A DNA stretch of 64,000 nt from Candidatus Buchananbacteria bacterium (lineage in GTDB: Bacteria; Patescibacteriota; Patescibacteriia; 2-01-FULL-39-33): positions 20,671 to 84,670 of the forward strand of contig CAIOLF010000046.1 in the NCBI GenBank assembly GCA_903859075.1, in the 5' to 3' direction. The notes below the pieces were generated by a model. The model saw nothing but the letters and a program-made list of their open reading frames with translations, made no database searches and was not told the origin of the DNA. Numbering within the stretch: position 1 is the first letter of the stretch; each line of letters begins with the position of its first letter. A program made the translations under genes and the position numbers. Positions 3,804-38,390 of this stretch are shown in pieces.

Positions 3804-3836
3804 AGCTTCTCACGAATCGTGAGAAGCTAACATTGG
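3804..3836 (-). terminator. rho-independent terminator for the RlpA-like gene; the hairpin overlaps the last 6 codons and is A-rich upstream, so partly bidirectional
   Basis: Stem agcttctcacg / cgtgagaagct with loop aat, followed on the minus strand by a T8 run. Confidence 0.6.
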
Positions 3837-4262
3837 CAAACTGGCCATTGGCGGCAAACTGGCCCTGGGGCCCGGCCGCTTAGGCAAGACGAGAGCAAAC
3901 ATTGGAGCCACTCCCTTCTTTTTGAGGCCTAGCTGGTCGGCCGCTCCTTCGGAAATATCGAGATCCCTTTCTGGCTTTGACGGACCTCGGTCATTGATCC
4001 TGACCTTGCAAAACCGCCAGGTTGACAGGTCAAGCCAATTTTCCGAGTAAAGCAGAAGTACCTCCGTATCAAACTGCAGCGTGCGGGACGCCGCAGTATA
4101 GCCGGCGGGAAAAAACTCCTCACCGCTGGCTGTCTGGGTCCCCTGCCTGTACCAGCTTACCACTGACACTGGCGGCAGAAGCTTCGAGATTGGCCGCGTA
4201 GCAGCAGTGCCACCTCCGGGCACCAGCTGCGTTATGGCCAACAGCAACACTAGATGCGTCAT
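3810..4262 (-). CDS. RlpA-like double-psi beta-barrel protein (septal ring lytic transglycosylase family), secreted
   Basis: Motifs SWYRQG..TASGE..TAASRTL..VRINDRGP..DLDISEGAADQLGL match RlpA DPBB. The start was moved to the internal ATG at 4262 (MTHLVLLLAITQLV signal peptide), which has GGAGG 7 nt upstream. The 198-aa ORF-track start at 4406 has no RBS. Confidence 0.7.
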   Translation of the reverse strand: MTHLVLLLAITQLVPGGGTAATRPISKLLPPVSVVSWYRQGTQTASGEEFFPAGYTAASRTLQFDTEVLLLYSENWLDLSTWRFCKVRINDRGPSKPERDLDISEGAADQLGLKKKGVAPMFALVLPKRPGPRASLPPMASLPMLASHDS

Positions 4263-4486
4263 CGACTTACCTCCATGCTCGGCCGAGGCCTCAAATATAC
4301 GAAAAAACATCTCTACAAACCTTACCGTGAAGGAATGCTTTTGGGAGTCGTTTTCTACTTCGAAGCCGGCTAAGGAAATTGGCTGAAGTCCGCGACGAGC
4401 GAACAATCAGCAACACTGCAAGCTTACGTAAGGAACGTTATAAATGCTAAAATAACTGCCGTAATTATAAACGATTTTTGGCCTCG

Positions 4487-11362: not shown

Positions 11363-11956
11363 TTATTGTTTTCTTTTTATTTCCAGCCAATCCGGTACCG
11401 GAGTAAAAGTAATTTCTTCCAAATGATCTATTTCTTCCTCGGTGACTTCATAATACTTTTGATAAGCCGTTTCCACGCTGCCATGCAGCGCCTCATTCCA
11501 ATCAAAGCCCAGCTTAGCGGCGACCGACCGCACATTTTCTTCCGTCTCCGCCTCAAGCTCCACAAAAGGCGGTATCCACGGCCAGGTGTCAATCGTCACT
11601 TCACAGCCGCTTAGCTCCCACGTTTCGCGCTTAGTCTCCTGATAGGAGCGGCAATCCAGTCCCGTGGCCAAGAGAAAGTCGCAAGCGGCGTCAAAATTAT
11701 CGACATTAAAAACTATTTCCTTCGTCCCCTGAAAAGTCCGGTCAACTAACCGCTTGTAGCTCATCGTAATCTTTTTGCCTTCATCCCGTACTCTGATCCA
11801 GGCGCCGATTTTCTCCAGGCGTTTATCAGAATAATCAAAAATCTTGCGTCGCATCAACACCTCCGCTTGGACTAGAGTCCCGCCATGACTTTTCAGCGCT
11901 TCCCGTAATTGCCGCGGATTAACGTCTAAGAATTTTGCTTCAACTTCAGTCTTCAT
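11363..11956 (-). CDS. CYTH-domain protein (triphosphate tunnel metalloenzyme family)
   Basis: 197 aa; N-terminal EVEAKF (ExExK signature), size and acidic-residue pattern typical of CYTH. Confidence 0.75.
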   Translation of the reverse strand: MKTEVEAKFLDVNPRQLREALKSHGGTLVQAEVLMRRKIFDYSDKRLEKIGAWIRVRDEGKKITMSYKRLVDRTFQGTKEIVFNVDNFDAACDFLLATGLDCRSYQETKRETWELSGCEVTIDTWPWIPPFVELEAETEENVRSVAAKLGFDWNEALHGSVETAYQKYYEVTEEEIDHLEEITFTPVPDWLEIKRKQ

Positions 11957-11958
11957 AG

Positions 11959-12822
11959 TTACTTTAGAATAATTTTTATTAATAAATCATTAATAAAATC
12001 AAAATCACCATCGCCGGTAATTACCGCATCAAACTTTTCTCTGTAAAGCTGCAGATTTTCTTCAATATTCTTATTTAAAAATCCGACCTTAATCAGATTA
12101 TCATAATTAAAACCGGTAATCATCTCCACGTCGTCCGAACCGTCGCCGAGTAGCAAGACATTTTTTCTTTCCTTGACCTTATCATAAAAAGAAAAATTGT
12201 CCAGCACGGTTTCTTCCTTATTAAAGGCATGAATAATCGGCTCCCTGACGGCAATTGCTCGACCGGCATCGTCCCAAATGAATTCATTAGAGACAATATA
12301 AACATTATCTGAAAGCAAATTCTGCCGCTTAAGATACAAAGAAATCGACTCTACTCCTAAACCGCTGGAAGACATAATCACCAAAGGAATGTCGCGCTCT
12401 CTTAAAAACTCAAAAAACTGCGCCACTCCCGAACGTAGCTGCAATCTTTGCGAGGTGATGGCTCGCTCAACATCTTTTTTCCGCAGGCCGGAAGCGATCA
12501 GCAGATCAAAATGCCTGGACCACCACTGCCGCATGGCCTCACGCTTTTCCGCGTGAGGCACTGACGGATCAATCTCGATCGCGTGATAATAATTGAACAA
12601 TTCTTTGGCTTTATCCGGATAGTCGGGCGTCAGATAGCCCTCGCTGCGCAAGACGGAGATTATTGAAGGCACTTCCTCCCCCGCCACAAACATCTTGGTA
12701 AGCGTACGATCAAAATCCGACAGAACGTGGAGTTTTTCCGCTCCGCCGATACTAATCGCTCTTTTAATCGACTCCAGACGCTGAGAATTAGAAATAATAA
12801 TATCTCCGGTCATATTAATCAT
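11959..12822 (-). CDS. HAD-superfamily pyrimidine 5'-nucleotidase-like protein (UMPH-1/cN-III family)
   Basis: 287 aa; motif I VLSDFDRTLTK, later LLLGDGSDD. Three bp downstream of the CYTH gene, so in an operon. Confidence 0.7.
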   Translation of the reverse strand: MINMTGDIIISNSQRLESIKRAISIGGAEKLHVLSDFDRTLTKMFVAGEEVPSIISVLRSEGYLTPDYPDKAKELFNYYHAIEIDPSVPHAEKREAMRQWWSRHFDLLIASGLRKKDVERAITSQRLQLRSGVAQFFEFLRERDIPLVIMSSSGLGVESISLYLKRQNLLSDNVYIVSNEFIWDDAGRAIAVREPIIHAFNKEETVLDNFSFYDKVKERKNVLLLGDGSDDVEMITGFNYDNLIKVGFLNKNIEENLQLYREKFDAVITGDGDFDFINDLLIKIILK

Positions 12823-24145: not shown

Positions 24146-24212
24146 GGGATATTTTTTGTTTTTGTACTCATTTATCCTAACAATTAATCTAGGTATAATA
24201 AGTACCAAAATG

Positions 24213-24287
24213 GGTGAGTGACCGGGGTTGAACCGGCAACCGCTCGGACCACAACCGAGTGCTCTAACCAATTGAGCTACACTCACC
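24213..24287 (-). tRNA. tRNA-His (anticodon GTG), with encoded G-1; CCA not encoded
   Basis: Sense sequence GGTGAGTGTAGCTCAATTGGTTAGAGCACTCGGTTGTGGTCCGAGCGGTTGCCGGTTCAACCCCGGTCACTCACC folded by hand: 8-bp acceptor including G-1:C73, anticodon loop TTGTGGT. Confidence 0.85.
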
Positions 24288-24291
24288 ATAA

Positions 24292-24363
24292 TGCTCCCAC
24301 CAGGACTCGAACCTGGATTTTAGGTTCCGGAAACCCATGTTCTATCCCTTGAACTATAGGAGC
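24292..24363 (-). tRNA. tRNA-Arg (anticodon CCG)
   Basis: Sense GCTCCTATAGTTCAAGGGATAGAACATGGGTTTCCGGAACCTAAAATCCAGGTTCGAGTCCTGGTGGGAGCA: cloverleaf folded by hand, T-loop TTCGAGT, anticodon loop TTCCGGA. Confidence 0.8.
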
Positions 24364-24407
24364 TGAATTGTTTTATCAAAATAGATTAGTTCAATTCCTA
24401 TCTTGAC

Positions 24408-24482
24408 TGGTGTCCCCGCTAGGAGTCGAACCTAGATCCAGAGCTTAGAAGGCTCTTGTTCTATCCGTTGAACTACGGGGAC
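24408..24482 (-). tRNA. tRNA-Arg (anticodon TCT), CCA encoded
   Basis: Sense GTCCCCGTAGTTCAACGGATAGAACAAGAGCCTTCTAAGCTCTGGATCTAGGTTCGACTCCTAGCGGGGACACCA; anticodon loop CTTCTAA. Confidence 0.85.
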
Positions 24483-27145: not shown

Positions 27146-28765
27146 ATGTTGACTTTTAAGAAAATTAATCATCAGCTGATCAATAACCAGTTCCTTGCCG
27201 GATTGGTTGTTTTTTTAATCTCGCTTATCATCTTTTCTTATCTGCAATTTTATCCCGGCATCAACGACCCGGATGCCTTTTACCACGTCAAAATTGCCCA
27301 GCTGATGAGCCAGCGGGGACTGATTACCGATTTCCCCTGGATGCAATTTTCCACCTGGAAAGACGGCTTTGTCGACCACCATTTCCTCTACCACGTGCTG
27401 CTGATACCCTTTGTCAGTTTTTTGCCGCCGCTTATCGGCGGAAAAATCTTTCAGATCATTCTCTGCTCTTTAGCCGTACTCGCCTTTTATTGGATGTTAA
27501 AAAAACTAAAAATCAAAGCCGCTTTCTGGTTTACTCTCGTCTTATTCCTGGCGCCATCGCTGCTCTTTCGCGTCAGCTTGGTCAAGGCGCAGCCGCTATC
27601 GCTGATAATCCTTTTTATCGGCTTGCATTTTATTTTCAATAAAAAACATTTTTCGCTTTTTTTAACCTCGCTGATTTACGTCCTGAGCTACGGCGGCTGG
27701 ATTTTGCTGCCGATTTTTTCCGTGCTTTACGCGCTGGTCGCGGCCTTTGATCAAGCGCTCCAATCCCTGCCCCAATTGCCCAAAAGCTACTGGCGCGCCG
27801 GCTGGCAACTGCTGCTTCGCTCATTAAAAAATTTATTCTCTTCCAAACTGTTTTGGCCGCTGGCCGCCTTTTCCGGCGCGGCCGCCGGACTGATTATCAA
27901 CCCTTTCTTCCCGCAGAATATTAATTTTTACTGGGTGCATATTTTCAAAATCGGCCTAATCAACTATCAAAAATACGTCGGCGTCGGCGGCGAATGGTAT
28001 CCGCTGAACTTTTCCGATTTGGCCTACCACGCGCTTATCCCTTTACTGCTGGCGACTATCGGGGCCGGCCTGCTGTTGTTTTATTTCCGCTCCAGCCGCA
28101 CCCCGGCCAAATTCTTCCTACTAAGTTCTTTTTTGCTACTGCTTTTGACGCTTAAATCACAACGAAATATTGAATACTTAATTCCTTTTTTGGTCGCTTC
28201 CGCCGCCGGCTCGCTTAATCTTTTCTGGGAAAACCAGCAGGCCCAAAACTGCCTGCTTCAGCTGGCCGGCAAGCTGAAAAAACTTTTTCCTGAAGCTTGG
28301 GTCAAAAAAACTGCCTGGTCGTTGGCTATCGTCATGCTTCTTTGTCTGGGAATTTTCTGCTTAGTTGACGCCAAAAAAAGATTAACGGACACCTCATTTT
28401 CCTTTGACTATTTAGGCGGCGCTTCGCGCTATCTGGCGAGCCACAGCCAGCCGCGCGATCTGGTGCTAAACAGCAACTGGTCCTATTTCCCGATGCTGTT
28501 TTATCATAATGACAAAAATTATTACGTCATCGGGCTTGATCCGACATTCATGTATCTCTATGATAAAAATCTGCAGAAAAAGATGATTGATATTACTTTG
28601 GGTAAGAGATATGAAGAGGCCTACGGAATCATTAAAAATGAATTGCGGGCAAAATACGTCCAAGTGGAAGCGAAGAATACCCTGTTCAAAAGCATCTTGG
28701 ATAATAACTTCAAATTCAAGAAGGTTTATGAAGACGGTGAAGGAGCGATTTATGAAGTGCTATAA
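27146..28765 (+). CDS. polytopic membrane glycosyltransferase, GT-C fold (ArnT/PMT/STT3-like) with C-terminal soluble domain
   Basis: 539 aa; about 12 TM helices, DPDAFYH in the first extracytoplasmic loop, C-terminal globular domain of about 120 aa. Confidence 0.5.
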   Translation: MLTFKKINHQLINNQFLAGLVVFLISLIIFSYLQFYPGINDPDAFYHVKIAQLMSQRGLITDFPWMQFSTWKDGFVDHHFLYHVLLIPFVSFLPPLIGGKIFQIILCSLAVLAFYWMLKKLKIKAAFWFTLVLFLAPSLLFRVSLVKAQPLSLIILFIGLHFIFNKKHFSLFLTSLIYVLSYGGWILLPIFSVLYALVAAFDQALQSLPQLPKSYWRAGWQLLLRSLKNLFSSKLFWPLAAFSGAAAGLIINPFFPQNINFYWVHIFKIGLINYQKYVGVGGEWYPLNFSDLAYHALIPLLLATIGAGLLLFYFRSSRTPAKFFLLSSFLLLLLTLKSQRNIEYLIPFLVASAAGSLNLFWENQQAQNCLLQLAGKLKKLFPEAWVKKTAWSLAIVMLLCLGIFCLVDAKKRLTDTSFSFDYLGGASRYLASHSQPRDLVLNSNWSYFPMLFYHNDKNYYVIGLDPTFMYLYDKNLQKKMIDITLGKRYEEAYGIIKNELRAKYVQVEAKNTLFKSILDNNFKFKKVYEDGEGAIYEVL

Positions 28766-28806: not shown

Positions 28807-28954
28807 TATATTTATACTACCTTATTAGCAAATCTGTGATTTTAGCTAAAATATAATAAATAATCCCAAAGTAGCTAAGATTATAGGTTTGGAAATAATG
28901 TAATCAACAGTACAAATGGTCGACTGCCAAAGGCAGCGACTTAGGGAGAATACA

Positions 28955-29344
28955 ATGAAAATGAGTTCTTTCGCGATCCTGGCTGCTCTGGCGATGATCC
29001 TGGCACTGGGCAGTGGCTGTGCCACCAGCGGGCCGGAATACGAGCGGAGCGCCTTTCATCAGGTCGTCGCCGGCCTTGACCACCCTCTTCGTGAGGGCGT
29101 GGTCGAAAACGGGCGTGACTATTCGGTAACCGTTTCAATCGACGGTGGCCCAGAGAAGTCGATTCCGGCCAGGTGTTTTACCACAATGTGCGCTCATGCC
29201 AATGCTAAATCGCACTTCGTGGTGAAGGCGGGATCAAGAGTCGTCTATGACGGCTACTACCCCATCTACAACGAACCCCTGGGCCACCTGTACGTGATGC
29301 CCGGGGGAAAAGGCATGGATACCGGCTGGATCTTCGGGATCTAG
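28955..29344 (+). CDS. putative lipoprotein (GC-rich, about 62% GC), function unknown
   Basis: Start at ATG 28955 with AGGGAGA upstream; signal peptide MKMSSFAILAALAMILALGSGC with a lipobox-like LGSGC. The ORF-track start 28916 has no RBS. Confidence 0.55.
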   Translation: MKMSSFAILAALAMILALGSGCATSGPEYERSAFHQVVAGLDHPLREGVVENGRDYSVTVSIDGGPEKSIPARCFTTMCAHANAKSHFVVKAGSRVVYDGYYPIYNEPLGHLYVMPGGKGMDTGWIFGI

Positions 29345-29363: not shown

Positions 29364-29410
29364 CCGCGGCGGGAAGCATGTTTGCGCTTCCCGCCGCGTT
29401 TCCTTTTCAA
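29364..29410. terminator. bidirectional GC-rich terminator between the lipoprotein and the first pilin gene
   Basis: ccgcggcgggaagc-atgtttgc-gcttcccgccgcgg, flanked by A/T runs on both sides. Confidence 0.8.
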
Positions 29411-29419
29411 AAAATAATT

Positions 29420-29851
29420 TTATCCGGCCGTGCCCCCGGCAGCTGTCTTGCCAATCTGAGCGATTACGAAAGAGGTAATGGCATAAGCCATAAAAATAAT
29501 CACAATGGCGACAACGCCCTGAATGATGGTCTTTCTGGCTTTGGTAATTTTAGTTTCATCGCCTTGAGCCATCATCCACATGAATCCGGCGTAAATAACG
29601 ATGAGCACGAACACAACGCCGAGCAGTCCCAGTAAGACCCCAACCACATTGCCGATGGTCTTCGGCAGATTGGCGCCCTCACCGCCTAATTGCTGAAGTC
29701 CAGTGGCCGTAAGATTTCCTTCTATATTGGTCACAATATCGGCCGAGGCCGGATGTACCAGGCCTAGCCCCAAAACCGGCACGGCCAGGAACATAACCAC
29801 CATCAGAAAAGAAAATAGATGTTTTCTCTTTTCCTTTAATAATTTTTTCAT
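29420..29851 (-). CDS. TrbC/VirB2-like (T4SS-type) pilin family small membrane protein, paralog 5 of 5
   Basis: 143 aa; N-terminal signal/TM, conserved C-terminal block IYAGFMWMMAQGDETKITKARKTIIQGVVAIVIIFMAYAITSFV shared with neighbours. Confidence 0.6.
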   Translation of the reverse strand: MKKLLKEKRKHLFSFLMVVMFLAVPVLGLGLVHPASADIVTNIEGNLTATGLQQLGGEGANLPKTIGNVVGVLLGLLGVVFVLIVIYAGFMWMMAQGDETKITKARKTIIQGVVAIVIIFMAYAITSFVIAQIGKTAAGGTAG

Positions 29852-29953
29852 AGCTTTTTAGTTAATTTTATATTAATTATTTATTTTTACTTTCAATCAC
29901 TTAGGCGGACTGCCGCCTAAGCCATGAAAACAATCTATCTAAACTAGAAGATT

Positions 29954-30364
29954 CTATCTGAACTTGAAAATATTGACCACAAACGACGTAATACCATAAG
30001 AAAGCATGACAATAATAAACCCAGTGAGTGCCGTAATGATTATATTGCGAGCTGATTTTATTTTTGTCTCGTCGCCGCGAGCCAGCATCCACATTACTCC
30101 GGCATAAATCGTCAAGACCAGAAAAAGAACTCCGATACCGGCCAGCACTGTTTTAATCACATTGCCGACAAAACTCGGCAGACTGGTCGATCTATCCAGA
30201 CCGGTGCCGGCGACCGCTCTCCTCAGTCCGGAAATCGGATTTACCGTGTCCGCGGCATAAACGGCGGTAAAACAAAAAATCCCTACAAGCAGAAAAAACA
30301 GCAAGGTGCTCAAAAAACGATAATTGATTTTATTTTTCCAAAGCATTTTTCTGGGTTTAATCAA
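29954..30364 (-). CDS. TrbC/VirB2-like pilin family small membrane protein, paralog 4
   Basis: 136 aa; IYAGVMWMLARGDETKIKSARNIIITALTGFIIVMLSYGITSFV. Confidence 0.6.
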   Translation of the reverse strand: MIKPRKMLWKNKINYRFLSTLLFFLLVGIFCFTAVYAADTVNPISGLRRAVAGTGLDRSTSLPSFVGNVIKTVLAGIGVLFLVLTIYAGVMWMLARGDETKIKSARNIIITALTGFIIVMLSYGITSFVVNIFKFR

Positions 30365-30403
30365 GGGGGGCGTAAAAACGCCCCCTTTGTTAAATTATAT
30401 TTA

Positions 30404-30781
30404 TTACACTGTGGCGTTGCTCTGGGCAGCCAAGCTGCCAATAACAAATTGGGCGATGGCGAAAGCGGCAAAAATAACCACCAAACCGATAATACCGGCG
30501 ATGATGAGTTTTTTGGCTTTGGTCACCTTTTCTTCGTTGCCGGCAGCAGTCATCCACATAAAACCGCCGTAAAGGATGATAAGAACCGCTACGACGCCGA
30601 GCAATCCCATAATGACATTGACGATGCCGCCAATCATCGGGACAAATTCCGCAGTGCCGCCTCCGGCTGCTTCTCTGAAATTTGTAAAGTTCTCACTTTG
30701 GGCAAAAACGATGGCTGGCATAATGAAGGCCATAACAGCCGCGGAAATCGCAGAAATCTTAATTAAAGCTAATTTTTTCAT
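30404..30781 (-). CDS. TrbC/VirB2-like pilin family small membrane protein, paralog 3
   Basis: 125 aa; signal peptide then LYGGFMWMTAAGNEEKVTKAKKLIIAGIIGLVVIFAAFAIAQFV. Confidence 0.6.
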   Translation of the reverse strand: MKKLALIKISAISAAVMAFIMPAIVFAQSENFTNFREAAGGGTAEFVPMIGGIVNVIMGLLGVVAVLIILYGGFMWMTAAGNEEKVTKAKKLIIAGIIGLVVIFAAFAIAQFVIGSLAAQSNATV

Positions 30782-30926
30782 GTTGTCACCCCCTTTCTTG
30801 GCCTCGCTTTATAAAAAAAATTATTAGCGAGAGTTGTTATTTATATACTAATTATAAAACATTCTGCTGATTTAAGCCACTATTTATCCACACTAAAACA
30901 AAAAAAATGCGCCTAATTTGGAGCAA

Positions 30927-31292
30927 TTATCTCGCCGAAGCTCCCGGCGTCGGATAGCCGAAGGCGTTGAAAACAAGCACCAAGATGCTATAAGAGGCAA
31001 AAATAATCACCAGACCGGCCACCGCCCAGATCATGGTTTTTTTGGCTTTGGTAATCTTTCCGGCATCGCCGCCGGAAGTCATCCAAGTAAATCCCGCCCA
31101 AATAAAAGCCAGTAAAGCGATTACGCCCAACATTCCCAGCGTGACATTGAGGGCATTGCTTAGCATCGCCGATAAGTCCGCTGCCGGAGCTGCCGGATGA
31201 TAAGTAACGCTGTCCGCCTGGGCATGGACCGTACCGGCAAACGCTAGCCAGGAAACAGTCGAGGTAAACGATGCTAAGAAAAATTTCTTCAT
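30927..31292 (-). CDS. TrbC/VirB2-like pilin family small membrane protein, paralog 2
   Basis: 121 aa; signal peptide (...AGTVHA) then IWAGFTWMTSGGDAGKITKAKKTMIWAVAGLVIIFASYSI. Confidence 0.6.
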   Translation of the reverse strand: MKKFFLASFTSTVSWLAFAGTVHAQADSVTYHPAAPAADLSAMLSNALNVTLGMLGVIALLAFIWAGFTWMTSGGDAGKITKAKKTMIWAVAGLVIIFASYSILVLVFNAFGYPTPGASAR

Positions 31293-31299
31293 AGAATAA

Positions 31300-31779
31300 T
31301 TATTGGCCGCCGCACTTATACGTCTGCAAACTGCTGCTTTTTGTCATTGCGCTCAAAGCGCTAGGAAAAGCGCCGGAAGGAGAGCTGCCGTAGAAAGCAA
31401 AAACTAAAGTGTTGGCCAAGGTCCAAGAAGCAAAAATTATCAGCAGGCCGACCAGAGTGGCAATGATGATATTTTTCCCCATAGTAATGCGATCGCTGCC
31501 ATAAGCGGTGATCATTATGATGCCGCCGATAATAAACATCAAAATGGCAATCGCTCCCGAGAAAGAAACAATCATGTCCGACGCATTAACGCCCACCTGA
31601 ATTAGATCGCAGGGGGTGCAATTGCCGGTGCCAATGCAGCCAGGGCTGACCCCTTGCATTAAGTAGGCGCCGCTGCCTGCGCCGCCTTCGTCCGCAGCGC
31701 CAGCCGCTGAGGCCAAAAAAACATTAGCGCCAAGAATCAGGCTCATAACGATTAACATTGTCGCTGCTATTTTTTTCAT
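31300..31779 (-). CDS. divergent member of the same small-membrane-protein family, Cys-rich ectodomain, paralog 1
   Basis: 159 aa; signal peptide, CIGTGNCTPC, then ITAYGSDRITMGKNIIIATLVGLLIIFASWTL (weaker match to the family block). Confidence 0.5.
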   Translation of the reverse strand: MKKIAATMLIVMSLILGANVFLASAAGAADEGGAGSGAYLMQGVSPGCIGTGNCTPCDLIQVGVNASDMIVSFSGAIAILMFIIGGIIMITAYGSDRITMGKNIIIATLVGLLIIFASWTLANTLVFAFYGSSPSGAFPSALSAMTKSSSLQTYKCGGQ

Positions 31780-31792
31780 AAGTCAAGGTTAC

Positions 31793-33211
31793 TTATTTTT
31801 TCGCCGGCGGGATCGGATCGGGAAGATTCTGCTCAGTGTCCACCGTCTGGGCGATTTTTTCCAACGCTATGCTCAGAATATCTTTTATCTGCCTGGGATC
31901 GGTTGCCGCCAGATATTTGTCGATCATCTCCGCGAAAGCGGCTTCGGCTGCCTTCGGCTCTTTGCCCTTATACCAAGTCTTGGCCGTCAAAATCTGGGAA
32001 ACTGAAGGGTATAAATCCTGATCTTCGATTTGCTTTTCGATTAATTTTTTGAGCGCCGTCGGACGCTTGGTCTTGTCTAAGAATTTTTTGGCCTCCGCGT
32101 CCTTGGTGGTGGCAAAAAGCACAAAATCCCAGGCTTCATCTTTATATTTCGTTTTTTTAGAAACCGACTCCACCCAATAATCGGCATAATTAGCCGTGGG
32201 GTTGCCGGGAATCTGGGGGATCGGCGCGATAGTAAAATTAAGCTTGGGAGCGCGAGCCCGGATAATCGGAATTTGAAAATTATAATCAAGGATAAAAGCC
32301 GTTTTTCCCGAAAGAAAAGTCTCAAAAGCGCTGCTGGCCATGGAGCCGTTCCAGCTGTAAACGCCCTTTAAGGGATTGGCAAAATCAGTATAAAACTGCA
32401 AAGCTACCTGTCCCTCGCTCTCCTTCTCGCCCTTTTTGGGAGTAAAAAATGTCGGTTGTCCCAAGGGGCCGGCCATCTGGGCGCCGTTCTGCATCATTAA
32501 GACGGAAAGGATGTCAAAACTTTGCTCGACGTTGGCGCCGGTACCCAAGGCCGCGCCCGAGAGAATAATATTATTATCCTGATCTATCTTGGTTATTTTT
32601 TGGACTGCCTGCTGAAATGATTTCCAATCAGCCGGCACCTGGGAGATTCCGGCCTGATTAAGAATGTCTTTATTATAAAACATTATCAAACTCTCCAAGC
32701 TCAGCGGCAAGCCGTAGACTTGCTGACGCAAAATAACGTCATCAGCGACAGTATCAGCGAACAATTCTTTAAGCTGACGCAGGCTGGGCGTCGGTGAAGT
32801 CTTGAGAGTGACAACCGTTTCCTTTTTAATCGTGCCTTGAATTTCTGAATAAGCCATGGTTAACTGGGACGGCATCGGCTCGATCTTGGCCTGATAACTT
32901 CTTATCCAACTCTGAGGGATGGAGAAAATGTCCGGCCCGCGATCCTCGGCTAAAGCATTTAAAAGCTCCGTCTCGTACTCCTCATAACGGAATTTGCGGT
33001 AATTAATCCTGATATTGGGGTGAGCCGTCTGATAATCCTTGATAATATCAGTAAAAGAATCGTCATCATCCCAAACACGCCAATAATTAAGAGTGATATC
33101 TTTCATTTTTTCCTGGGTCTGCTGATCCTGGAGCTTGCAGCCGAAGCCGGAAGTTATTAAGAAAACGGCTATGAGCGATAAACTTAATATGCGGGAATAG
33201 CTATTCTTCAT
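31793..33211 (-). CDS. extracellular solute-binding protein family 1 (ABC-type sugar-binding-like) lipoprotein
   Basis: 472 aa; signal plus lipobox-like ITSGFGC, SBP_bac_1-like N-terminal block LNYWRVWDDDD...PDIF. Heads the pilin operon; no permease or ATPase genes are adjacent. Confidence 0.7.
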   Translation of the reverse strand: MKNSYSRILSLSLIAVFLITSGFGCKLQDQQTQEKMKDITLNYWRVWDDDDSFTDIIKDYQTAHPNIRINYRKFRYEEYETELLNALAEDRGPDIFSIPQSWIRSYQAKIEPMPSQLTMAYSEIQGTIKKETVVTLKTSPTPSLRQLKELFADTVADDVILRQQVYGLPLSLESLIMFYNKDILNQAGISQVPADWKSFQQAVQKITKIDQDNNIILSGAALGTGANVEQSFDILSVLMMQNGAQMAGPLGQPTFFTPKKGEKESEGQVALQFYTDFANPLKGVYSWNGSMASSAFETFLSGKTAFILDYNFQIPIIRARAPKLNFTIAPIPQIPGNPTANYADYWVESVSKKTKYKDEAWDFVLFATTKDAEAKKFLDKTKRPTALKKLIEKQIEDQDLYPSVSQILTAKTWYKGKEPKAAEAAFAEMIDKYLAATDPRQIKDILSIALEKIAQTVDTEQNLPDPIPPAKK

Positions 33212-33214
33212 AAA

Positions 33215-33259
33215 AATGTCTTAAATTATAATGTCTTAAATTATAATGTCTTAAATTAT
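33215..33259. repeat. three tandem copies of a 15-bp unit (aatgtcttaaattat), each carrying TATAAT on the minus strand, starting 4 nt upstream of the SBP start codon
   Basis: Read directly: aatgtcttaaattat x3 at 33215-33229, 33230-33244 and 33245-33259. Confidence 0.85.
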
Positions 33260-33346
33260 AAAAAATGCCCTAAATGATCGTGCCTGGCCTCAGCAATTCA
33301 TTAATTTTATTATAGCATATTTACGCGTATAATAAAAAATATCTCC

Positions 33347-33434: not shown

Positions 33435-33824
33435 ATGGCGAGTAAAAAGACGAATGTATGGGAAACAATCATGGCCTCGTTAAATGAGGACGAGGACGCC
33501 GCGGTCTGGCAAAAGCTGCCCAAGGACGATGATGCCGGACTGCCTAGCGGGATCCACGCCTGGCAAATCAACTTGGCCCTAATGAGAATAATCCGGGCCA
33601 GTGATCCGCCCAAACGCCTGCACCGGCGCCTGGTGCTCGCGGTAATCCATAACTCGGCCATTAACGCCGACGAGACGCAGTATCGGGCTGAGGCGGCCAA
33701 AGTCATCCGGCTGCTCTTGGGCCGAGAATTGCTGCAAGACGCCCTCGATGAGGCAGTCGGCGACAAGCGAGACAACTTGGCCGCTCTTCGAGACGAAGTT
33801 ATCCAATTGGACGTGGGGAAGTAG
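33435..33824 (+). CDS. hypothetical protein (GC-rich, about 60%), last gene before the palindrome axis
   Basis: 129-aa ORF with a strong promoter and Shine-Dalgarno; Asp/Glu-rich N-terminus. No motif recognised. Confidence 0.55.
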   Translation: MASKKTNVWETIMASLNEDEDAAVWQKLPKDDDAGLPSGIHAWQINLALMRIIRASDPPKRLHRRLVLAVIHNSAINADETQYRAEAAKVIRLLLGRELLQDALDEAVGDKRDNLAALRDEVIQLDVGK

Positions 33825-34523: not shown

Positions 34524-35942
34524 ATGAAGAATAGCTATTCCCGCATATTAAGTTTATCGCTCATAGCCGTTTTCTTAATAACTTCCGGCTTCGGCTGCAA
34601 GCTCCAGGATCAGCAGACCCAGGAAAAAATGAAAGATATCACTCTTAATTATTGGCGTGTTTGGGATGATGACGATTCTTTTACTGATATTATCAAGGAT
34701 TATCAGACGGCTCACCCCAATATCAGGATTAATTACCGCAAATTCCGTTATGAGGAGTACGAGACGGAGCTTTTAAATGCTTTAGCCGAGGATCGCGGGC
34801 CGGACATTTTCTCCATCCCTCAGAGTTGGATAAGAAGTTATCAGGCCAAGATCGAGCCGATGCCGTCCCAGTTAACCATGGCTTATTCAGAAATTCAAGG
34901 CACGATTAAAAAGGAAACGGTTGTCACTCTCAAGACTTCACCGACGCCCAGCCTGCGTCAGCTTAAAGAATTGTTCGCTGATACTGTCGCTGATGACGTT
35001 ATTTTGCGTCAGCAAGTCTACGGCTTGCCGCTGAGCTTGGAGAGTTTGATAATGTTTTATAATAAAGACATTCTTAATCAGGCCGGAATCTCCCAGGTGC
35101 CGGCTGATTGGAAATCATTTCAGCAGGCAGTCCAAAAAATAACCAAGATAGATCAGGATAATAATATTATTCTCTCGGGCGCGGCCTTGGGTACCGGCGC
35201 CAACGTCGAGCAAAGTTTTGACATCCTTTCCGTCTTAATGATGCAGAACGGCGCCCAGATGGCCGGCCCCTTGGGACAACCGACATTTTTTACTCCCAAA
35301 AAGGGCGAGAAGGAGAGCGAGGGACAGGTAGCTTTGCAGTTTTATACTGATTTTGCCAATCCCTTAAAGGGCGTTTACAGCTGGAACGGCTCCATGGCCA
35401 GCAGCGCTTTTGAGACTTTTCTTTCGGGAAAAACGGCTTTTATCCTTGATTATAATTTTCAAATTCCGATTATCCGGGCTCGCGCTCCCAAGCTTAATTT
35501 TACTATCGCGCCGATCCCCCAGATTCCCGGCAACCCCACGGCTAATTATGCCGATTATTGGGTGGAGTCGGTTTCTAAAAAAACGAAATATAAAGATGAA
35601 GCCTGGGATTTTGTGCTTTTTGCCACCACCAAGGACGCGGAGGCCAAAAAATTCTTAGACAAGACCAAGCGTCCGACGGCGCTCAAAAAATTAATCGAAA
35701 AGCAAATCGAAGATCAGGATTTATACCCTTCAGTTTCCCAGATTTTGACGGCCAAGACTTGGTATAAGGGCAAAGAGCCGAAGGCAGCCGAAGCCGCTTT
35801 CGCGGAGATGATCGACAAATATCTGGCGGCAACCGATCCCAGGCAGATAAAAGATATTCTGAGCATAGCGTTGGAAAAAATCGCCCAGACGGTGGACACT
35901 GAGCAGAATCTTCCCGATCCGATCCCGCCGGCGAAAAAATAA
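34524..35942 (+). CDS. mirror copy of 31793-33211: solute-binding lipoprotein
   Basis: Identical 472-aa protein. Confidence 0.7.
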   Translation: MKNSYSRILSLSLIAVFLITSGFGCKLQDQQTQEKMKDITLNYWRVWDDDDSFTDIIKDYQTAHPNIRINYRKFRYEEYETELLNALAEDRGPDIFSIPQSWIRSYQAKIEPMPSQLTMAYSEIQGTIKKETVVTLKTSPTPSLRQLKELFADTVADDVILRQQVYGLPLSLESLIMFYNKDILNQAGISQVPADWKSFQQAVQKITKIDQDNNIILSGAALGTGANVEQSFDILSVLMMQNGAQMAGPLGQPTFFTPKKGEKESEGQVALQFYTDFANPLKGVYSWNGSMASSAFETFLSGKTAFILDYNFQIPIIRARAPKLNFTIAPIPQIPGNPTANYADYWVESVSKKTKYKDEAWDFVLFATTKDAEAKKFLDKTKRPTALKKLIEKQIEDQDLYPSVSQILTAKTWYKGKEPKAAEAAFAEMIDKYLAATDPRQIKDILSIALEKIAQTVDTEQNLPDPIPPAKK

Positions 35943-35955
35943 GTAACCTTGACTT

Positions 35956-36435
35956 ATGAAAAAAATAGCAGCGACAATGTTAATCGTTATGAGCCTGATT
36001 CTTGGCGCTAATGTTTTTTTGGCCTCAGCGGCTGGCGCTGCGGACGAAGGCGGCGCAGGCAGCGGCGCCTACTTAATGCAAGGGGTCAGCCCTGGCTGCA
36101 TTGGCACCGGCAATTGCACCCCCTGCGATCTAATTCAGGTGGGCGTTAATGCGTCGGACATGATTGTTTCTTTCTCGGGAGCGATTGCCATTTTGATGTT
36201 TATTATCGGCGGCATCATAATGATCACCGCTTATGGCAGCGATCGCATTACTATGGGGAAAAATATCATCATTGCCACTCTGGTCGGCCTGCTGATAATT
36301 TTTGCTTCTTGGACCTTGGCCAACACTTTAGTTTTTGCTTTCTACGGCAGCTCTCCTTCCGGCGCTTTTCCTAGCGCTTTGAGCGCAATGACAAAAAGCA
36401 GCAGTTTGCAGACGTATAAGTGCGGCGGCCAATAA
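35956..36435 (+). CDS. mirror copy of 31300-31779: pilin-family paralog 1
   Basis: Identical 159-aa protein. Confidence 0.5.
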   Translation: MKKIAATMLIVMSLILGANVFLASAAGAADEGGAGSGAYLMQGVSPGCIGTGNCTPCDLIQVGVNASDMIVSFSGAIAILMFIIGGIIMITAYGSDRITMGKNIIIATLVGLLIIFASWTLANTLVFAFYGSSPSGAFPSALSAMTKSSSLQTYKCGGQ

Positions 36436-36442
36436 TTATTCT

Positions 36443-36808
36443 ATGAAGAAATTTTTCTTAGCATCGTTTACCTCGACTGTTTCCTGGCTAGCGTTTGCCG
36501 GTACGGTCCATGCCCAGGCGGACAGCGTTACTTATCATCCGGCAGCTCCGGCAGCGGACTTATCGGCGATGCTAAGCAATGCCCTCAATGTCACGCTGGG
36601 AATGTTGGGCGTAATCGCTTTACTGGCTTTTATTTGGGCGGGATTTACTTGGATGACTTCCGGCGGCGATGCCGGAAAGATTACCAAAGCCAAAAAAACC
36701 ATGATCTGGGCGGTGGCCGGTCTGGTGATTATTTTTGCCTCTTATAGCATCTTGGTGCTTGTTTTCAACGCCTTCGGCTATCCGACGCCGGGAGCTTCGG
36801 CGAGATAA
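36443..36808 (+). CDS. mirror copy of 30927-31292: pilin-family paralog 2
   Basis: Identical 121-aa protein. Confidence 0.6.
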   Translation: MKKFFLASFTSTVSWLAFAGTVHAQADSVTYHPAAPAADLSAMLSNALNVTLGMLGVIALLAFIWAGFTWMTSGGDAGKITKAKKTMIWAVAGLVIIFASYSILVLVFNAFGYPTPGASAR

Positions 36809-36953
36809 TTGCTCCAAATTAGGCGCATTTTTTTTGTTTTAGTGTGGATAAATAGTGGCTTAAATCAGCAGAATGTTTTATAATTAGTATATAAATAACA
36901 ACTCTCGCTAATAATTTTTTTTATAAAGCGAGGCCAAGAAAGGGGGTGACAAC

Positions 36954-37331
36954 ATGAAAAAATTAGCTTTAATTAAGATTTCTGCGATTTCCGCGGCTGT
37001 TATGGCCTTCATTATGCCAGCCATCGTTTTTGCCCAAAGTGAGAACTTTACAAATTTCAGAGAAGCAGCCGGAGGCGGCACTGCGGAATTTGTCCCGATG
37101 ATTGGCGGCATCGTCAATGTCATTATGGGATTGCTCGGCGTCGTAGCGGTTCTTATCATCCTTTACGGCGGTTTTATGTGGATGACTGCTGCCGGCAACG
37201 AAGAAAAGGTGACCAAAGCCAAAAAACTCATCATCGCCGGTATTATCGGTTTGGTGGTTATTTTTGCCGCTTTCGCCATCGCCCAATTTGTTATTGGCAG
37301 CTTGGCTGCCCAGAGCAACGCCACAGTGTAA
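36954..37331 (+). CDS. mirror copy of 30404-30781: pilin-family paralog 3
   Basis: Identical 125-aa protein. Confidence 0.6.
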   Translation: MKKLALIKISAISAAVMAFIMPAIVFAQSENFTNFREAAGGGTAEFVPMIGGIVNVIMGLLGVVAVLIILYGGFMWMTAAGNEEKVTKAKKLIIAGIIGLVVIFAAFAIAQFVIGSLAAQSNATV

Positions 37332-37370
37332 TAAATATAATTTAACAAAGGGGGCGTTTTTACGCCCCCC

Positions 37371-37781
37371 TTGATTAAACCCAGAAAAATGCTTTGGAAA
37401 AATAAAATCAATTATCGTTTTTTGAGCACCTTGCTGTTTTTTCTGCTTGTAGGGATTTTTTGTTTTACCGCCGTTTATGCCGCGGACACGGTAAATCCGA
37501 TTTCCGGACTGAGGAGAGCGGTCGCCGGCACCGGTCTGGATAGATCGACCAGTCTGCCGAGTTTTGTCGGCAATGTGATTAAAACAGTGCTGGCCGGTAT
37601 CGGAGTTCTTTTTCTGGTCTTGACGATTTATGCCGGAGTAATGTGGATGCTGGCTCGCGGCGACGAGACAAAAATAAAATCAGCTCGCAATATAATCATT
37701 ACGGCACTCACTGGGTTTATTATTGTCATGCTTTCTTATGGTATTACGTCGTTTGTGGTCAATATTTTCAAGTTCAGATAG
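37371..37781 (+). CDS. mirror copy of 29954-30364: pilin-family paralog 4
   Basis: Identical 136-aa protein. Confidence 0.6.
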   Translation: MIKPRKMLWKNKINYRFLSTLLFFLLVGIFCFTAVYAADTVNPISGLRRAVAGTGLDRSTSLPSFVGNVIKTVLAGIGVLFLVLTIYAGVMWMLARGDETKIKSARNIIITALTGFIIVMLSYGITSFVVNIFKFR

Positions 37782-37883
37782 AATCTTCTAGTTTAGATAG
37801 ATTGTTTTCATGGCTTAGGCGGCAGTCCGCCTAAGTGATTGAAAGTAAAAATAAATAATTAATATAAAATTAACTAAAAAGCT

Positions 37884-38315
37884 ATGAAAAAATTATTAAA
37901 GGAAAAGAGAAAACATCTATTTTCTTTTCTGATGGTGGTTATGTTCCTGGCCGTGCCGGTTTTGGGGCTAGGCCTGGTACATCCGGCCTCGGCCGATATT
38001 GTGACCAATATAGAAGGAAATCTTACGGCCACTGGACTTCAGCAATTAGGCGGTGAGGGCGCCAATCTGCCGAAGACCATCGGCAATGTGGTTGGGGTCT
38101 TACTGGGACTGCTCGGCGTTGTGTTCGTGCTCATCGTTATTTACGCCGGATTCATGTGGATGATGGCTCAAGGCGATGAAACTAAAATTACCAAAGCCAG
38201 AAAGACCATCATTCAGGGCGTTGTCGCCATTGTGATTATTTTTATGGCTTATGCCATTACCTCTTTCGTAATCGCTCAGATTGGCAAGACAGCTGCCGGG
38301 GGCACGGCCGGATAA
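37884..38315 (+). CDS. mirror copy of 29420-29851: pilin-family paralog 5
   Basis: Identical 143-aa protein. Confidence 0.6.
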   Translation: MKKLLKEKRKHLFSFLMVVMFLAVPVLGLGLVHPASADIVTNIEGNLTATGLQQLGGEGANLPKTIGNVVGVLLGLLGVVFVLIVIYAGFMWMMAQGDETKITKARKTIIQGVVAIVIIFMAYAITSFVIAQIGKTAAGGTAG

Positions 38316-38390
38316 AATTATTTTTTGAAAAGGAAACGCGGCGGGAAGCGCAAACATGCTTCCCGCCGCGGTTTTGTTTTACGGTTGTGG

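Follow-up and report, generated by a model that had tools for sequence, protein, structure and literature searches.

Results

Organization of the locus

In this study, a stretch of 64,000 nucleotides (the window) from contig CAIOLF010000046.1 of the Candidatus Buchananbacteria bacterium assembly GCA_903859075.1 (positions 20,671 to 84,670, forward strand) was analysed for a locus that encodes a solute-binding protein (SBP) together with five small proteins resembling the VirB2-type pilins of type IV secretion systems (T4SSs). Six consecutive co-directional open reading frames (ORFs) lie on the minus strand (33211->29420), comprising one SBP_bac_1 lipoprotein and the five small proteins, here named P1 to P5. 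The leading gene, SBP (31793..33211, 472 aa), encodes an orphan family-1 protein of the CUT1, oligosaccharide type and is a probable lipoprotein. It is followed by P1 (31300..31779, 159 aa; the SBP-linked, divergent VirB2-like pilin), P2 (30927..31292, 121 aa; VirB2/TrbC-like), P3 (30404..30781, 125 aa; the most conserved pilin), P4 (29954..30364; VirB2-like) and P5 (29420..29851, 143 aa; VirB2-like), the intergenic gaps from SBP to P5 being 13, 7, 145, 39 and 102 bp. P4 has 136 aa when read from TTG; its start is probably the ATG at 30346 (Met7, 130 aa), because this start fits the alignment with relatives and an independent gene call yields 130 aa. A preliminary description of this DNA, made from the sequence alone, had listed five consecutive minus-strand genes of 121-159 aa here, and the ORFs confirm them. 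Independent sequence information is confined to positions 1-33867 of the window (~33.9 kb, hereafter the unique half); the palindromic duplication is described below.

Profile matches and topology of P1 to P5

All five small proteins passed the gathering score of PF18895 T4SS_pilin (26.6 bits), with 31.4 bits for P1, 39.5 for P2, 45.5 for P3, 28.6 for P4 and 32.4 for P5, and matches to this family were also found precomputed on an independent assembly of the same locus. Five adjacent genes that each exceed a curated family threshold are far beyond chance. The threshold of PF04956 TrbC/VirB2 (27.9 bits) was passed by P2 (31.5 bits), and P5 lay 0.1 bits under it (27.8 bits), P1, P3 and P4 being unreported. 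NCBIfam NF045849, a pilin-like family of Mycoplasma integrative and conjugative elements (ICEs) with a cut-off of 40 bits, was passed by P3 (46.9 bits) and P5 (42.4 bits), while P2 (33.2 bits) and P4 (25.7 bits) scored below it and P1 had no match. For P3, 551 homologs were found in the database, some of them named 'pilin' by NCBI. The predicted pilin membership rests on these three curated sequence profiles together with the protein architecture, and the TrbC/VirB2-like identity of the type known from the candidate phyla radiation, as proposed in the preliminary description, is upheld by PF18895 for all five proteins and by PF04956 for P2. A sub-threshold similarity of P5 (23.3 bits) to DctQ, the small subunit of tripartite ATP-independent periplasmic (TRAP) transporters, accompanies a JGI annotation that names one homolog DctQ; this assignment was rejected, since the score is below threshold and the similarity is limited to hydrophobic helices.

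Hydropathy analysis showed the same layout in each small protein: a hydrophobic signal sequence, a variable segment of 15-35 residues, a first transmembrane helix (TM1), a short charged loop and a second helix (TM2). The signal sequence closes with an AxA-like site in 5/5 (ASA/A, VHA/Q, VFA/Q, VYA/A and ASA/D for P1 to P5, the slash marking the predicted cleavage point), in agreement with the signal peptide or N-terminal TM helix claimed earlier for each. The loop has the consensus G-D/N-E-x-K-I/V-T-K-A-K/R-K in P2 to P5 and reads YGSDRITMGKN in P1; the loops are Lys-rich with a net charge of +1 to +3, which agrees with the positive-inside rule and suggests a cytoplasmic orientation. The AF2 model of P3 (56 sequences) is a confident hairpin of helices 46-77 and 83-120 joined by a five-residue loop, with a predicted local distance difference test score (pLDDT) of ~93, so the two-TM hairpin anticipated for the family was recovered both by hydropathy and, for P3, by modelling.

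Two further claims on the architecture needed revision. A conserved C-terminal block, (I/L)(Y/W)(A/G)G(F/V)(M/T)WM..A.G(D/N)E.K(I/V).KA(R/K)K.II, had been ascribed to all five proteins with a second TM helix behind it; it is present in P2 to P5, P1 being divergent (IIMITAYGSDRITMGKNIII), and it proved to be the end of TM1 plus the inter-helix loop and not a separate element, with TM2 indeed following. The ectodomains had been called unrelated to one another. They are variable, as stated, but comprise only ~15-35 residues, and while pairwise identity among P1 to P5 is 25-54%, P4 and P5 can be aligned over nearly their full length at 38% identity.

The solute-binding protein

SBP matches PF01547 at 99.6 bits, and 80 PDB sequences match it at E<=1e-3, all of them sugar or oligosaccharide binders (best 4r9f, E=1e-26). 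Its closest solved relatives are of the CUT1 type and include binders of maltose, trehalose and arabino-oligosaccharides. An invariant TSGFGC (Cys25) closes the signal sequence, and a lipid anchor is therefore probable. Orthologs across Patescibacteria are 50-60% identical, with 71 invariant columns including Cys25.

The preliminary description had noted a family-1 binding lipoprotein that lacks cognate permease and ATPase genes, and wider searches gave the same picture. No ATP-binding cassette (ABC) permease or ATPase domain was found in the unique half when its ORFs of 110 aa or more were examined. In 80 related loci (±10 kb) the proteins with Walker A and LSGGQ motifs were all SMC proteins, with no ABC ATPase or permease among them, and no permease family occurs among the 30 most recurrent neighbour clusters of these loci.

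Linkage of SBP and P1 across genomes

A scan of one genome per species recovered at least 536 stretches that encode a relative of SBP, of which the best 80 (47-60% identity) were taken with 10-kb flanks. A hidden Markov model built from the five window pilins detected 352 pilin-like ORFs in the fetched loci, and 352/352 lie downstream of SBP on the SBP strand. In 77 of the 78 loci with room for it, a same-strand pilin ORF starts at -60 to +160 bp relative to the SBP stop codon, with a median gap of 5 bp; the lone exception has its pilin at +427. Clustering of all ORFs identified the pilin family as the sole near-universal neighbour (79/81 loci), the next families being present in <=49 loci and differing by sub-clade.

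What lies beyond the first pilin depends on the lineage. In Buchananbacteria-like genomes the first pilin is followed directly by 3-8 further pilins, as in the window, while in Falkowbacteria-like genomes 2-8 kb of unrelated genes separate it from a six-pilin array. These inserted genes encode a RodZ-like helix-turn-helix (HTH) protein, a methyltransferase, a UPF0102 protein, a family 2 glycosyltransferase (GT2) and a ~535-aa membrane protein; they were considered as hidden parts of a T4SS and rejected, the RodZ-like HTH protein, methyltransferase, UPF0102 and GT2 not being machinery. On the other side, the region upstream of SBP is a synteny breakpoint among near relatives: where SBP is 76-84% identical, the gene 5' of it differs each time (Laminin_G_3, Wzy_C with a tRNA, Cation_efflux). 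GW2011_GWF2_39_8 and an Uhrbacteria genome, the latter with a first pilin of 454 aa, show the pairing as well. The SBP->P1 gene pair is conserved while its flanks rearrange.

P1, the pilin next to SBP

The Cys-rich string CIGTGNCTPC, pointed out earlier in one of the five proteins, corresponds to P1 residues 48-57. Four cysteines of P1 are invariant in 7 orthologs, three of them towards the N-terminus (C48, C54 and C57) and one towards the C-terminus (C156). At least two cysteines occur in 64 of the 79 first-position pilins as against 17/278 other array pilins of the 80 loci. Many first-position pilins carry large Cys-rich modules, N- or C-terminal, without a Pfam match; among the related loci (designated by L numbers) such first pilins are found in L034 (227 aa), L064 (270 aa), L080 (226 aa) and L086 (11419-12783, 454 aa), the one of L034 having a GYxCMD…CRxGYCPGGTNIQCCxP module at both ends. 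In L014 it is the third pilin (318 aa), not the first, that bears the Cys-rich module. P1 is putatively a specialised exposed subunit, because it is linked to SBP, its cysteines are conserved at both predicted extracellular ends, and these ends are elaborated into Cys-rich modules in relatives.

Age, order and variation of the paralogs

The best match of P1 was the pilin at position 1 in 14/14 five-gene arrays and in 28/29 seven-gene sets. In the five-gene arrays the best match also fell at the protein's own position in 11/14 cases for P3, 10/14 for P4 and 10/14 for P5. Over all genome pairs, same-position best matches amounted to 86% in the sets with one pilin plus a six-pilin array (chance 14%) and to 59% in five-gene arrays (chance 20%). 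Median identity within arrays was 35%, while positional orthologs were 35-58% identical. Because best matches fall predominantly at the same array position, the pilin duplications are, judging from these comparisons, older than the divergence of the compared lineages, with gene order kept.

Between near relatives P3 is 77-79% identical, compared with 76-83% for SBP, and its core helix-loop-helix is almost invariant; P1, P2 and P4 are 51-67% identical. The changes in P3 fall almost entirely within the mature N-terminus of ~20 residues, and P5 behaves likewise, suggesting that variation is concentrated in N-terminal segments, which are the predicted pilus surface. The comparison of ectodomains across strains suggested in the preliminary description did find a variable mature N-terminal segment, though not a diversifying array of cassettes: the array looks like a fixed set of distinct subunits. 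P3 is likely the major subunit, a candidate role suggested because it is the best conserved of the five and is followed by a conserved stem-loop.

Expression signals and flanking genes

An extended -10 element, ATATGCTATAAT (33309..33320, minus strand), lies ~100 nt upstream of the SBP start codon, and a ATATGYTATAAT element occupies the equivalent site 5' of the SBP ortholog in the near relatives L081, L082/L083 and L084/L085. It is probably the operon promoter, a function proposed because of its match to the consensus and its conservation in these relatives. The leader between the -10 element and the SBP ATG contains a perfect 15-bp x 3.1 tandem repeat, AATGTCTTAAATTAT (33215..33261; Tandem Repeats Finder score 94, 100% matches), and a weaker sigma-70-like match overlaps it. 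The repeat was absent 5' of SBP in near relatives and in 78 other loci and is strain-specific; its candidacy as an operator was dropped, since absence from all relatives places it outside the conserved system.

Directly 3' of the P3 stop codon, an RNA stem-loop with the core GGGGGCG...CGCCCCC (30356..30394, minus strand) and no U-tract has a dG of -20.8 kcal/mol (z -4.6), and 0/200 shuffles were as stable. Equivalent hairpins follow P3 in L081 (6772-6828), L082 (3455-3511) and L084 (5024-5082), with position and pairing kept (z -4.6 to -5.7). A second stem-loop lies between P4 and P5 (29890..29930, minus strand; dG -24.9 kcal/mol, z -3.7, 1/200 shuffles as stable). Internal hairpins are common in pilus operons for setting subunit stoichiometry, and the two stem-loops may act in differential expression and stoichiometry or in mRNA stability. 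Downstream of P5, a bidirectional intrinsic-terminator-like hairpin (29365..29398), with a 14-bp stem, 11 G-C pairs and T-runs on both strands, ends both the operon and the convergent gene 28916-29344.

This convergent gene (28916-29344, plus strand) is a lipoprotein-like ORF of 142 aa (…LGSGC…) with 57% G+C compared with 45% regionally; it matches no family and is kept at 42-45% identity in L081 and L082. Further on, and also convergent to the array, a polytopic membrane protein of ~540 aa (27146-28765, plus strand) is kept at the same place in L081 (8341-9966) and L082 (5056-6681) at 61-62% identity, and no Pfam, NCBIfam or PDB sequence match was found for it. A same-sized protein in L037 (14618-16231) has only weak C-terminal similarity to it (E=6e-4), and in 27 other loci a protein of the L037 type adjoins GT2 directly ahead of the six pilin genes. 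The 27146-28765 protein could be a divergent VirB6-like platform or a GT-C-type glycosyltransferase and was left unassigned. Divergent from SBP lies an ORF of 129 aa (33435-33824, plus strand; 57% G+C) without Pfam or NCBIfam match, which abuts the centre of the palindrome.

Palindromic duplication and genomic context

Read as its reverse complement, the stretch 3735-33867 is identical to 33868-64000. The arms of 30,133 bp have 0 mismatches and no spacer, their centre falls between 33867 and 33868, and the right arm extends past the window end; the preliminary description does not mention this mirror-image duplication. A second copy of the operon with its terminator is consequently found at 34524..38370 on the plus strand, the six-gene block itself being mirrored at 34524-38315, and each gene in it is identical to its mirror, so the copy is not independent evidence. 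The palindrome is probably an assembly foldback chimera, because a perfect palindrome of such size with zero spacer is most simply an assembly artefact. A separate assembly of the same locus stops ~100 bp before the palindrome centre. The alternative that it marks the hairpin telomere of a linear molecule was ranked below foldback, as a remote one. The reality of the operon is unaffected by the palindrome, because independent contigs from other samples carry the operon.

The rest of the unique half contains ordinary chromosomal genes, encoding a P-type ATPase, a NUDIX protein, a cyclopropane-fatty-acid-synthase-like methyltransferase, a DEAD helicase, a PAPS reductase-like protein, a pyridoxal phosphate (PLP) enzyme, a radical SAM protein, a PGI-like SIS protein and three tRNAs. 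The tRNA cluster (24212-24482, minus strand) was read by ARAGORN as His-GTG, Arg-CCG and Arg-TCT, and at the Rfam gathering threshold only both Arg genes are obtained. A protein of 198 aa encoded about 25 kb away from the pilin operon (3810-4406, minus strand) has a DPBB_1 (RlpA/lytic-transglycosylase-like) domain and may be an enzyme of cell-wall remodelling.

The SBP homologs (50-84% identity) and the pilin homologs all come from Patescibacteria metagenome bins, assigned to Buchananbacteria, Falkowbacteria, Uhrbacteria and the 'Parcubacteria group', and one homolog-bearing assembly was classed as ABY1 in a published dataset (PMC12102498). By its homologs the locus thus belongs to Patescibacteria, in the vicinity of Buchananbacteria and Falkowbacteria (class ABY1-like), and its source is an uncultured ultra-small bacterium.

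Discussion

Tandem arrays of VirB2-like genes are already known from Patescibacteria, and the pilin array described here is, in itself, a published kind of locus. In all, 441 arrays of 2-11 such genes, with a mean identity of 25% and a maximum of 54%, were recorded in 383 Patescibacteria assemblies (Quinonero-Coronel et al. 2025, PMC12102498), and in Ca. Southlakia epibionticum ML1 the T4SS cluster includes an array of six pilin genes that is essential (Wang et al. 2023, PMC10633639; reviewed in PMC12857230). With five adjacent genes of 25-54% identity, the locus falls within the published range, and it shares with the known arrays tandem co-directional small PF18895/VirB2-like genes of low identity that encode a signal peptide and two helices. 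Unlike the Southlakia array, which lies inside the T4SS cluster, it has no T4SS gene nearby, and in contrast to that and the other published arrays its first two genes encode an orphan SBP and a specialised Cys-bearing pilin, a layout kept from one ABY1-type genome to the next. We consider it probable that the six genes are transcribed as one unit and that their products are a surface-anchored binding lipoprotein of the oligosaccharide type and five different VirB2-like pilins of a T4SS-type apparatus.

VirB2-like proteins have been described as having two TM helices and a short charged cytoplasmic loop. A VirB6 platform receives them from the membrane, and once the pilus is built its lumen is bordered by the loop while both termini face outward; experiments support the same arrangement for Gram-positive PrgF (bioRxiv 10.64898/2025.12.18.695078). 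On this model, the pre-pilins would be exported by Sec and cleaved at the AxA sites; the mature proteins would span the membrane as two-helix hairpins and hold their Lys-rich loop on the cytoplasmic side. A T4SS of the VirB4/VirB6 type encoded elsewhere in the genome would then extract the pilins and polymerise them into a pilus or a wall-spanning conduit. If solved conjugative pili and the PrgF model are a guide, the lumen would be lined by the loop, and the variable N-terminus together with the C-terminus would form the outer surface. This predicted exposed surface, including the Cys-bearing ends of P1, would be where strain variation and domain accretion occur. A heteromeric structure of differentiated subunits seems favoured, because the paralog set is ordered and ancient. 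In the least secure step of the model, SBP would serve as a glycan-recognising accessory of the pilin apparatus instead of receiving solutes for a neighbouring ABC importer, because it is co-transcribed with the pilins, is probably close to P1 in translation, is better conserved than any pilin and lacks a transporter partner in its surroundings. The preliminary description had suggested that SBP may be a surface receptor rather than a transporter component, and the conserved pairing with P1, which the sequence alone could not show, makes an apparatus-linked role of SBP more plausible.

A number of observations weigh against the assembly of these proteins into a T4SS-type pilus with SBP as its accessory. 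VirB4, VirB6, VirB3/PrgI and TrsD were not recognisable in the 33.9 kb of unique sequence, in line with the lack of VirB4/VirB6-like genes noted for the window from the start, and the unique half also contains no T4SS or relaxase gene; no recurrent VirB4-sized ATPase or T4SS gene was found in the 10-kb flanks of the 80 related loci. Comparison with solved structures gave no significant pilin match. A profile of 27 pilins searched against PDB sequences reached the VirB2 structure 8cue only at a non-significant E=8.7, its top matches being designed 'Pizza' beta-propeller repeats, which were dismissed as spurious since they share only a short GxxWxTxxGxxxK-like string. Foldseek with the P3 model against the PDB returned nothing at E<=0.001 and no pilin among the 38 matches listed; the best match to the hairpin is the ATP-synthase c subunit, so the fold is compatible with VirB2 and not diagnostic of it. 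The fold search weighs little because a two-helix hairpin is too generic, and its failure would be uninformative rather than negative evidence. The AF2 model of P1 (7 sequences) has a pLDDT of 52, too low to assess whether the N-terminal cysteine cluster bonds to the C-terminal cysteine as a disulfide counterpart of TrbC/VirB2 cyclisation, and the literature consulted records no pilus for any ABY1 organism. Finally, the normal job of the SBP family is ABC import, and CUT1 systems can share ATPases; SBP could have a plain transport role with its permeases located elsewhere.

As to the machinery, VirB4, TrsD and a type IV coupling protein are encoded elsewhere in the genome of the ABY1 member GW2011_GWF2_39_8 (GCA_000995525.1; PMC12102498 supplementary table), and this assembly carries the same SBP-pilin locus (L087; pilin at 11498-12061). 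Table S3 of PMC12102498 lists one Tfc9-type VirB2 for GCA_000995525.1 and omits the PF18895 pilin that follows SBP, and ABY1 pilin loci of the SBP-linked type may be under-counted in that survey.

That the five genes are VirB2-like pilins while SBP is an ordinary oligosaccharide receptor of a distant ABC importer, its adjacency reflecting inherited synteny or co-regulation, is an explanation to be taken seriously, although we regard it as rather unlikely. SBP is a bona fide PF01547 protein that, among solved structures, comes closest to receptors of sugar transport; its conservation far exceeds that of the pilins, as would be expected of a housekeeping uptake protein with a fixed ligand; and all 80 loci come from one clade, so that shared ancestry contributes to the adjacency. 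However, the SBP->P1 junction is kept in 77/78 loci at a median of 5 bp despite reshuffled genes on both sides, P1 stays with SBP in the many loci where the rest of the array is displaced by 2-8 kb, and no ABC component lies within 10 kb in any locus. A more radical departure, that the small proteins form no pili at all and are two-helix membrane subunits of a pore or ring with SBP as an unconventional uptake system, or anchors for Cys-rich modules, might draw on the failure to find T4SS machinery in the window or as a recurrent neighbour of related loci, on the non-specific fold search with its ATP-synthase c-ring subunit, and on the DctQ similarity of P5 with the JGI annotation of its homolog. 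It is very unlikely in our view: scores above threshold were obtained with curated pilin profiles of three independent origins, homologous arrays reside inside T4SS clusters and are essential in Southlakia (Saccharimonadia), PF18895 also covers PrgF, whose pilus-type assembly has experimental support, and the DctQ match is below threshold and confined to hydrophobic helices.

The preliminary description had read the tandem diversification as antigenic or host-contact variation, which would make the paralogs alternative versions of one pilin that arose by recent duplication, an antigenic or host-range variation cassette. The same idea has been raised by analogy with Bartonella and Anaplasma (PMC12102498), the paralogs are indeed only 25-54% identical, and the part of the claim that stands is the concentration of strain differences in the predicted exposed N-terminal segment. 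Yet the paralogs predate the divergence of the compared genomes, as far as best matches tell, and have kept their order; near-identical copies, pseudogene cassettes and recombination repeats were not found in the locus; P3 is as conserved as SBP between near strains; and the single operon gives no sign of alternative expression beyond fixed stem-loops. Recent cassette duplication is improbable on these grounds.

Comparison with other known systems further defines the locus, here taken as a probable pilin operon with an apparatus-linked SBP. PrgF of the Enterococcus faecalis pCF10 T4SS (MPF-FATA) has in common with P1 to P5 a monoderm-type T4SS context, two helices and a short charged loop, and PrgF-type proteins match PF18895 in a published table (PMC12102498). 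PrgF is encoded by a single gene on a conjugative plasmid beside VirB6 and VirB4 homologs, and its loop gives a negative lumen, whereas here five chromosomal paralogs have Lys-rich loops, cleavable signal peptides and longer exposed termini. NF045849, the Mbov_0395 family of pilin-like conjugal transfer proteins from Mycoplasma ICEs, is likewise shared in part, since P3 and P5 pass its cut-off and it comes from a wall-less/monoderm lineage with FATA-type conjugation; it is, however, an equivalog for ICE-borne conjugation genes, while in the window there is no recognisable ICE, the genes are multiplied and P1, P2 and P4 do not reach the cut-off. In Bartonella and Anaplasma, VirB2 copies of diderm pathogens are read as antigenic or host-range variants (cited in PMC12102498). 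These tandem paralogs resemble the present array in that several divergent copies stand side by side in a host-associated bacterium, but the copies here appear to be ancient, order-conserved orthologous groups. An SBP fold beside a T4SS and without its own permease genes is found in the pheromone-binding lipoproteins PrgZ/TraC of enterococcal conjugative plasmids and in ChvE of Agrobacterium, which serve as sensors or receptors and pass a signal or ligand on to other components. PrgZ/TraC bind peptides as family-5 proteins and rely on the Opp permease of the host, and ChvE signals through VirA. In contrast to these, the SBP described here is of the family-1 oligosaccharide type and putatively co-transcribed with pilins. 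No mention of a solute-binding protein was found in PMC12102498 or PMC10633639, nor did full-text literature searches combining relevant terms bring one up, and order-conserved orthology of paralogs is not described in these two studies. The conserved SBP->P1 module, its separation from virB4 and the order-conserved paralog orthology appear to be new.

The role of the essential T4SS and pilin arrays in Patescibacteria is an open question, and the published ideas, such as a conduit for uptake or signalling, come without a molecular handle. If SBP is an ordinary transporter receptor, the locus is only another member of a catalogued class. On the other hand, a highly conserved, soluble binding protein of the sugar type whose gene stays with that of one specialised pilin across hundreds of species would offer a molecular handle on the apparatus, and a fixed, ordered set of paralogs shifts the working model from 'variant cassettes' to a 'multi-subunit filament'. 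More speculatively, and with considerable doubt, we propose that the SBP-P1 pair might be a dedicated ligand-capture head of a T4SS-type pilus, in which SBP would recognise a host-envelope glycan or a host-derived sugar and act through P1, and P1 in turn would nucleate or cap a heteropolymeric conduit made of the other pilins. If true, an SBP would be coupled to a VirB2-type filament instead of an ABC permease, and ABY1-class episymbionts would gain a pilus-based device for host recognition or uptake, supplying the missing 'adhesin/VirB5-like' function.

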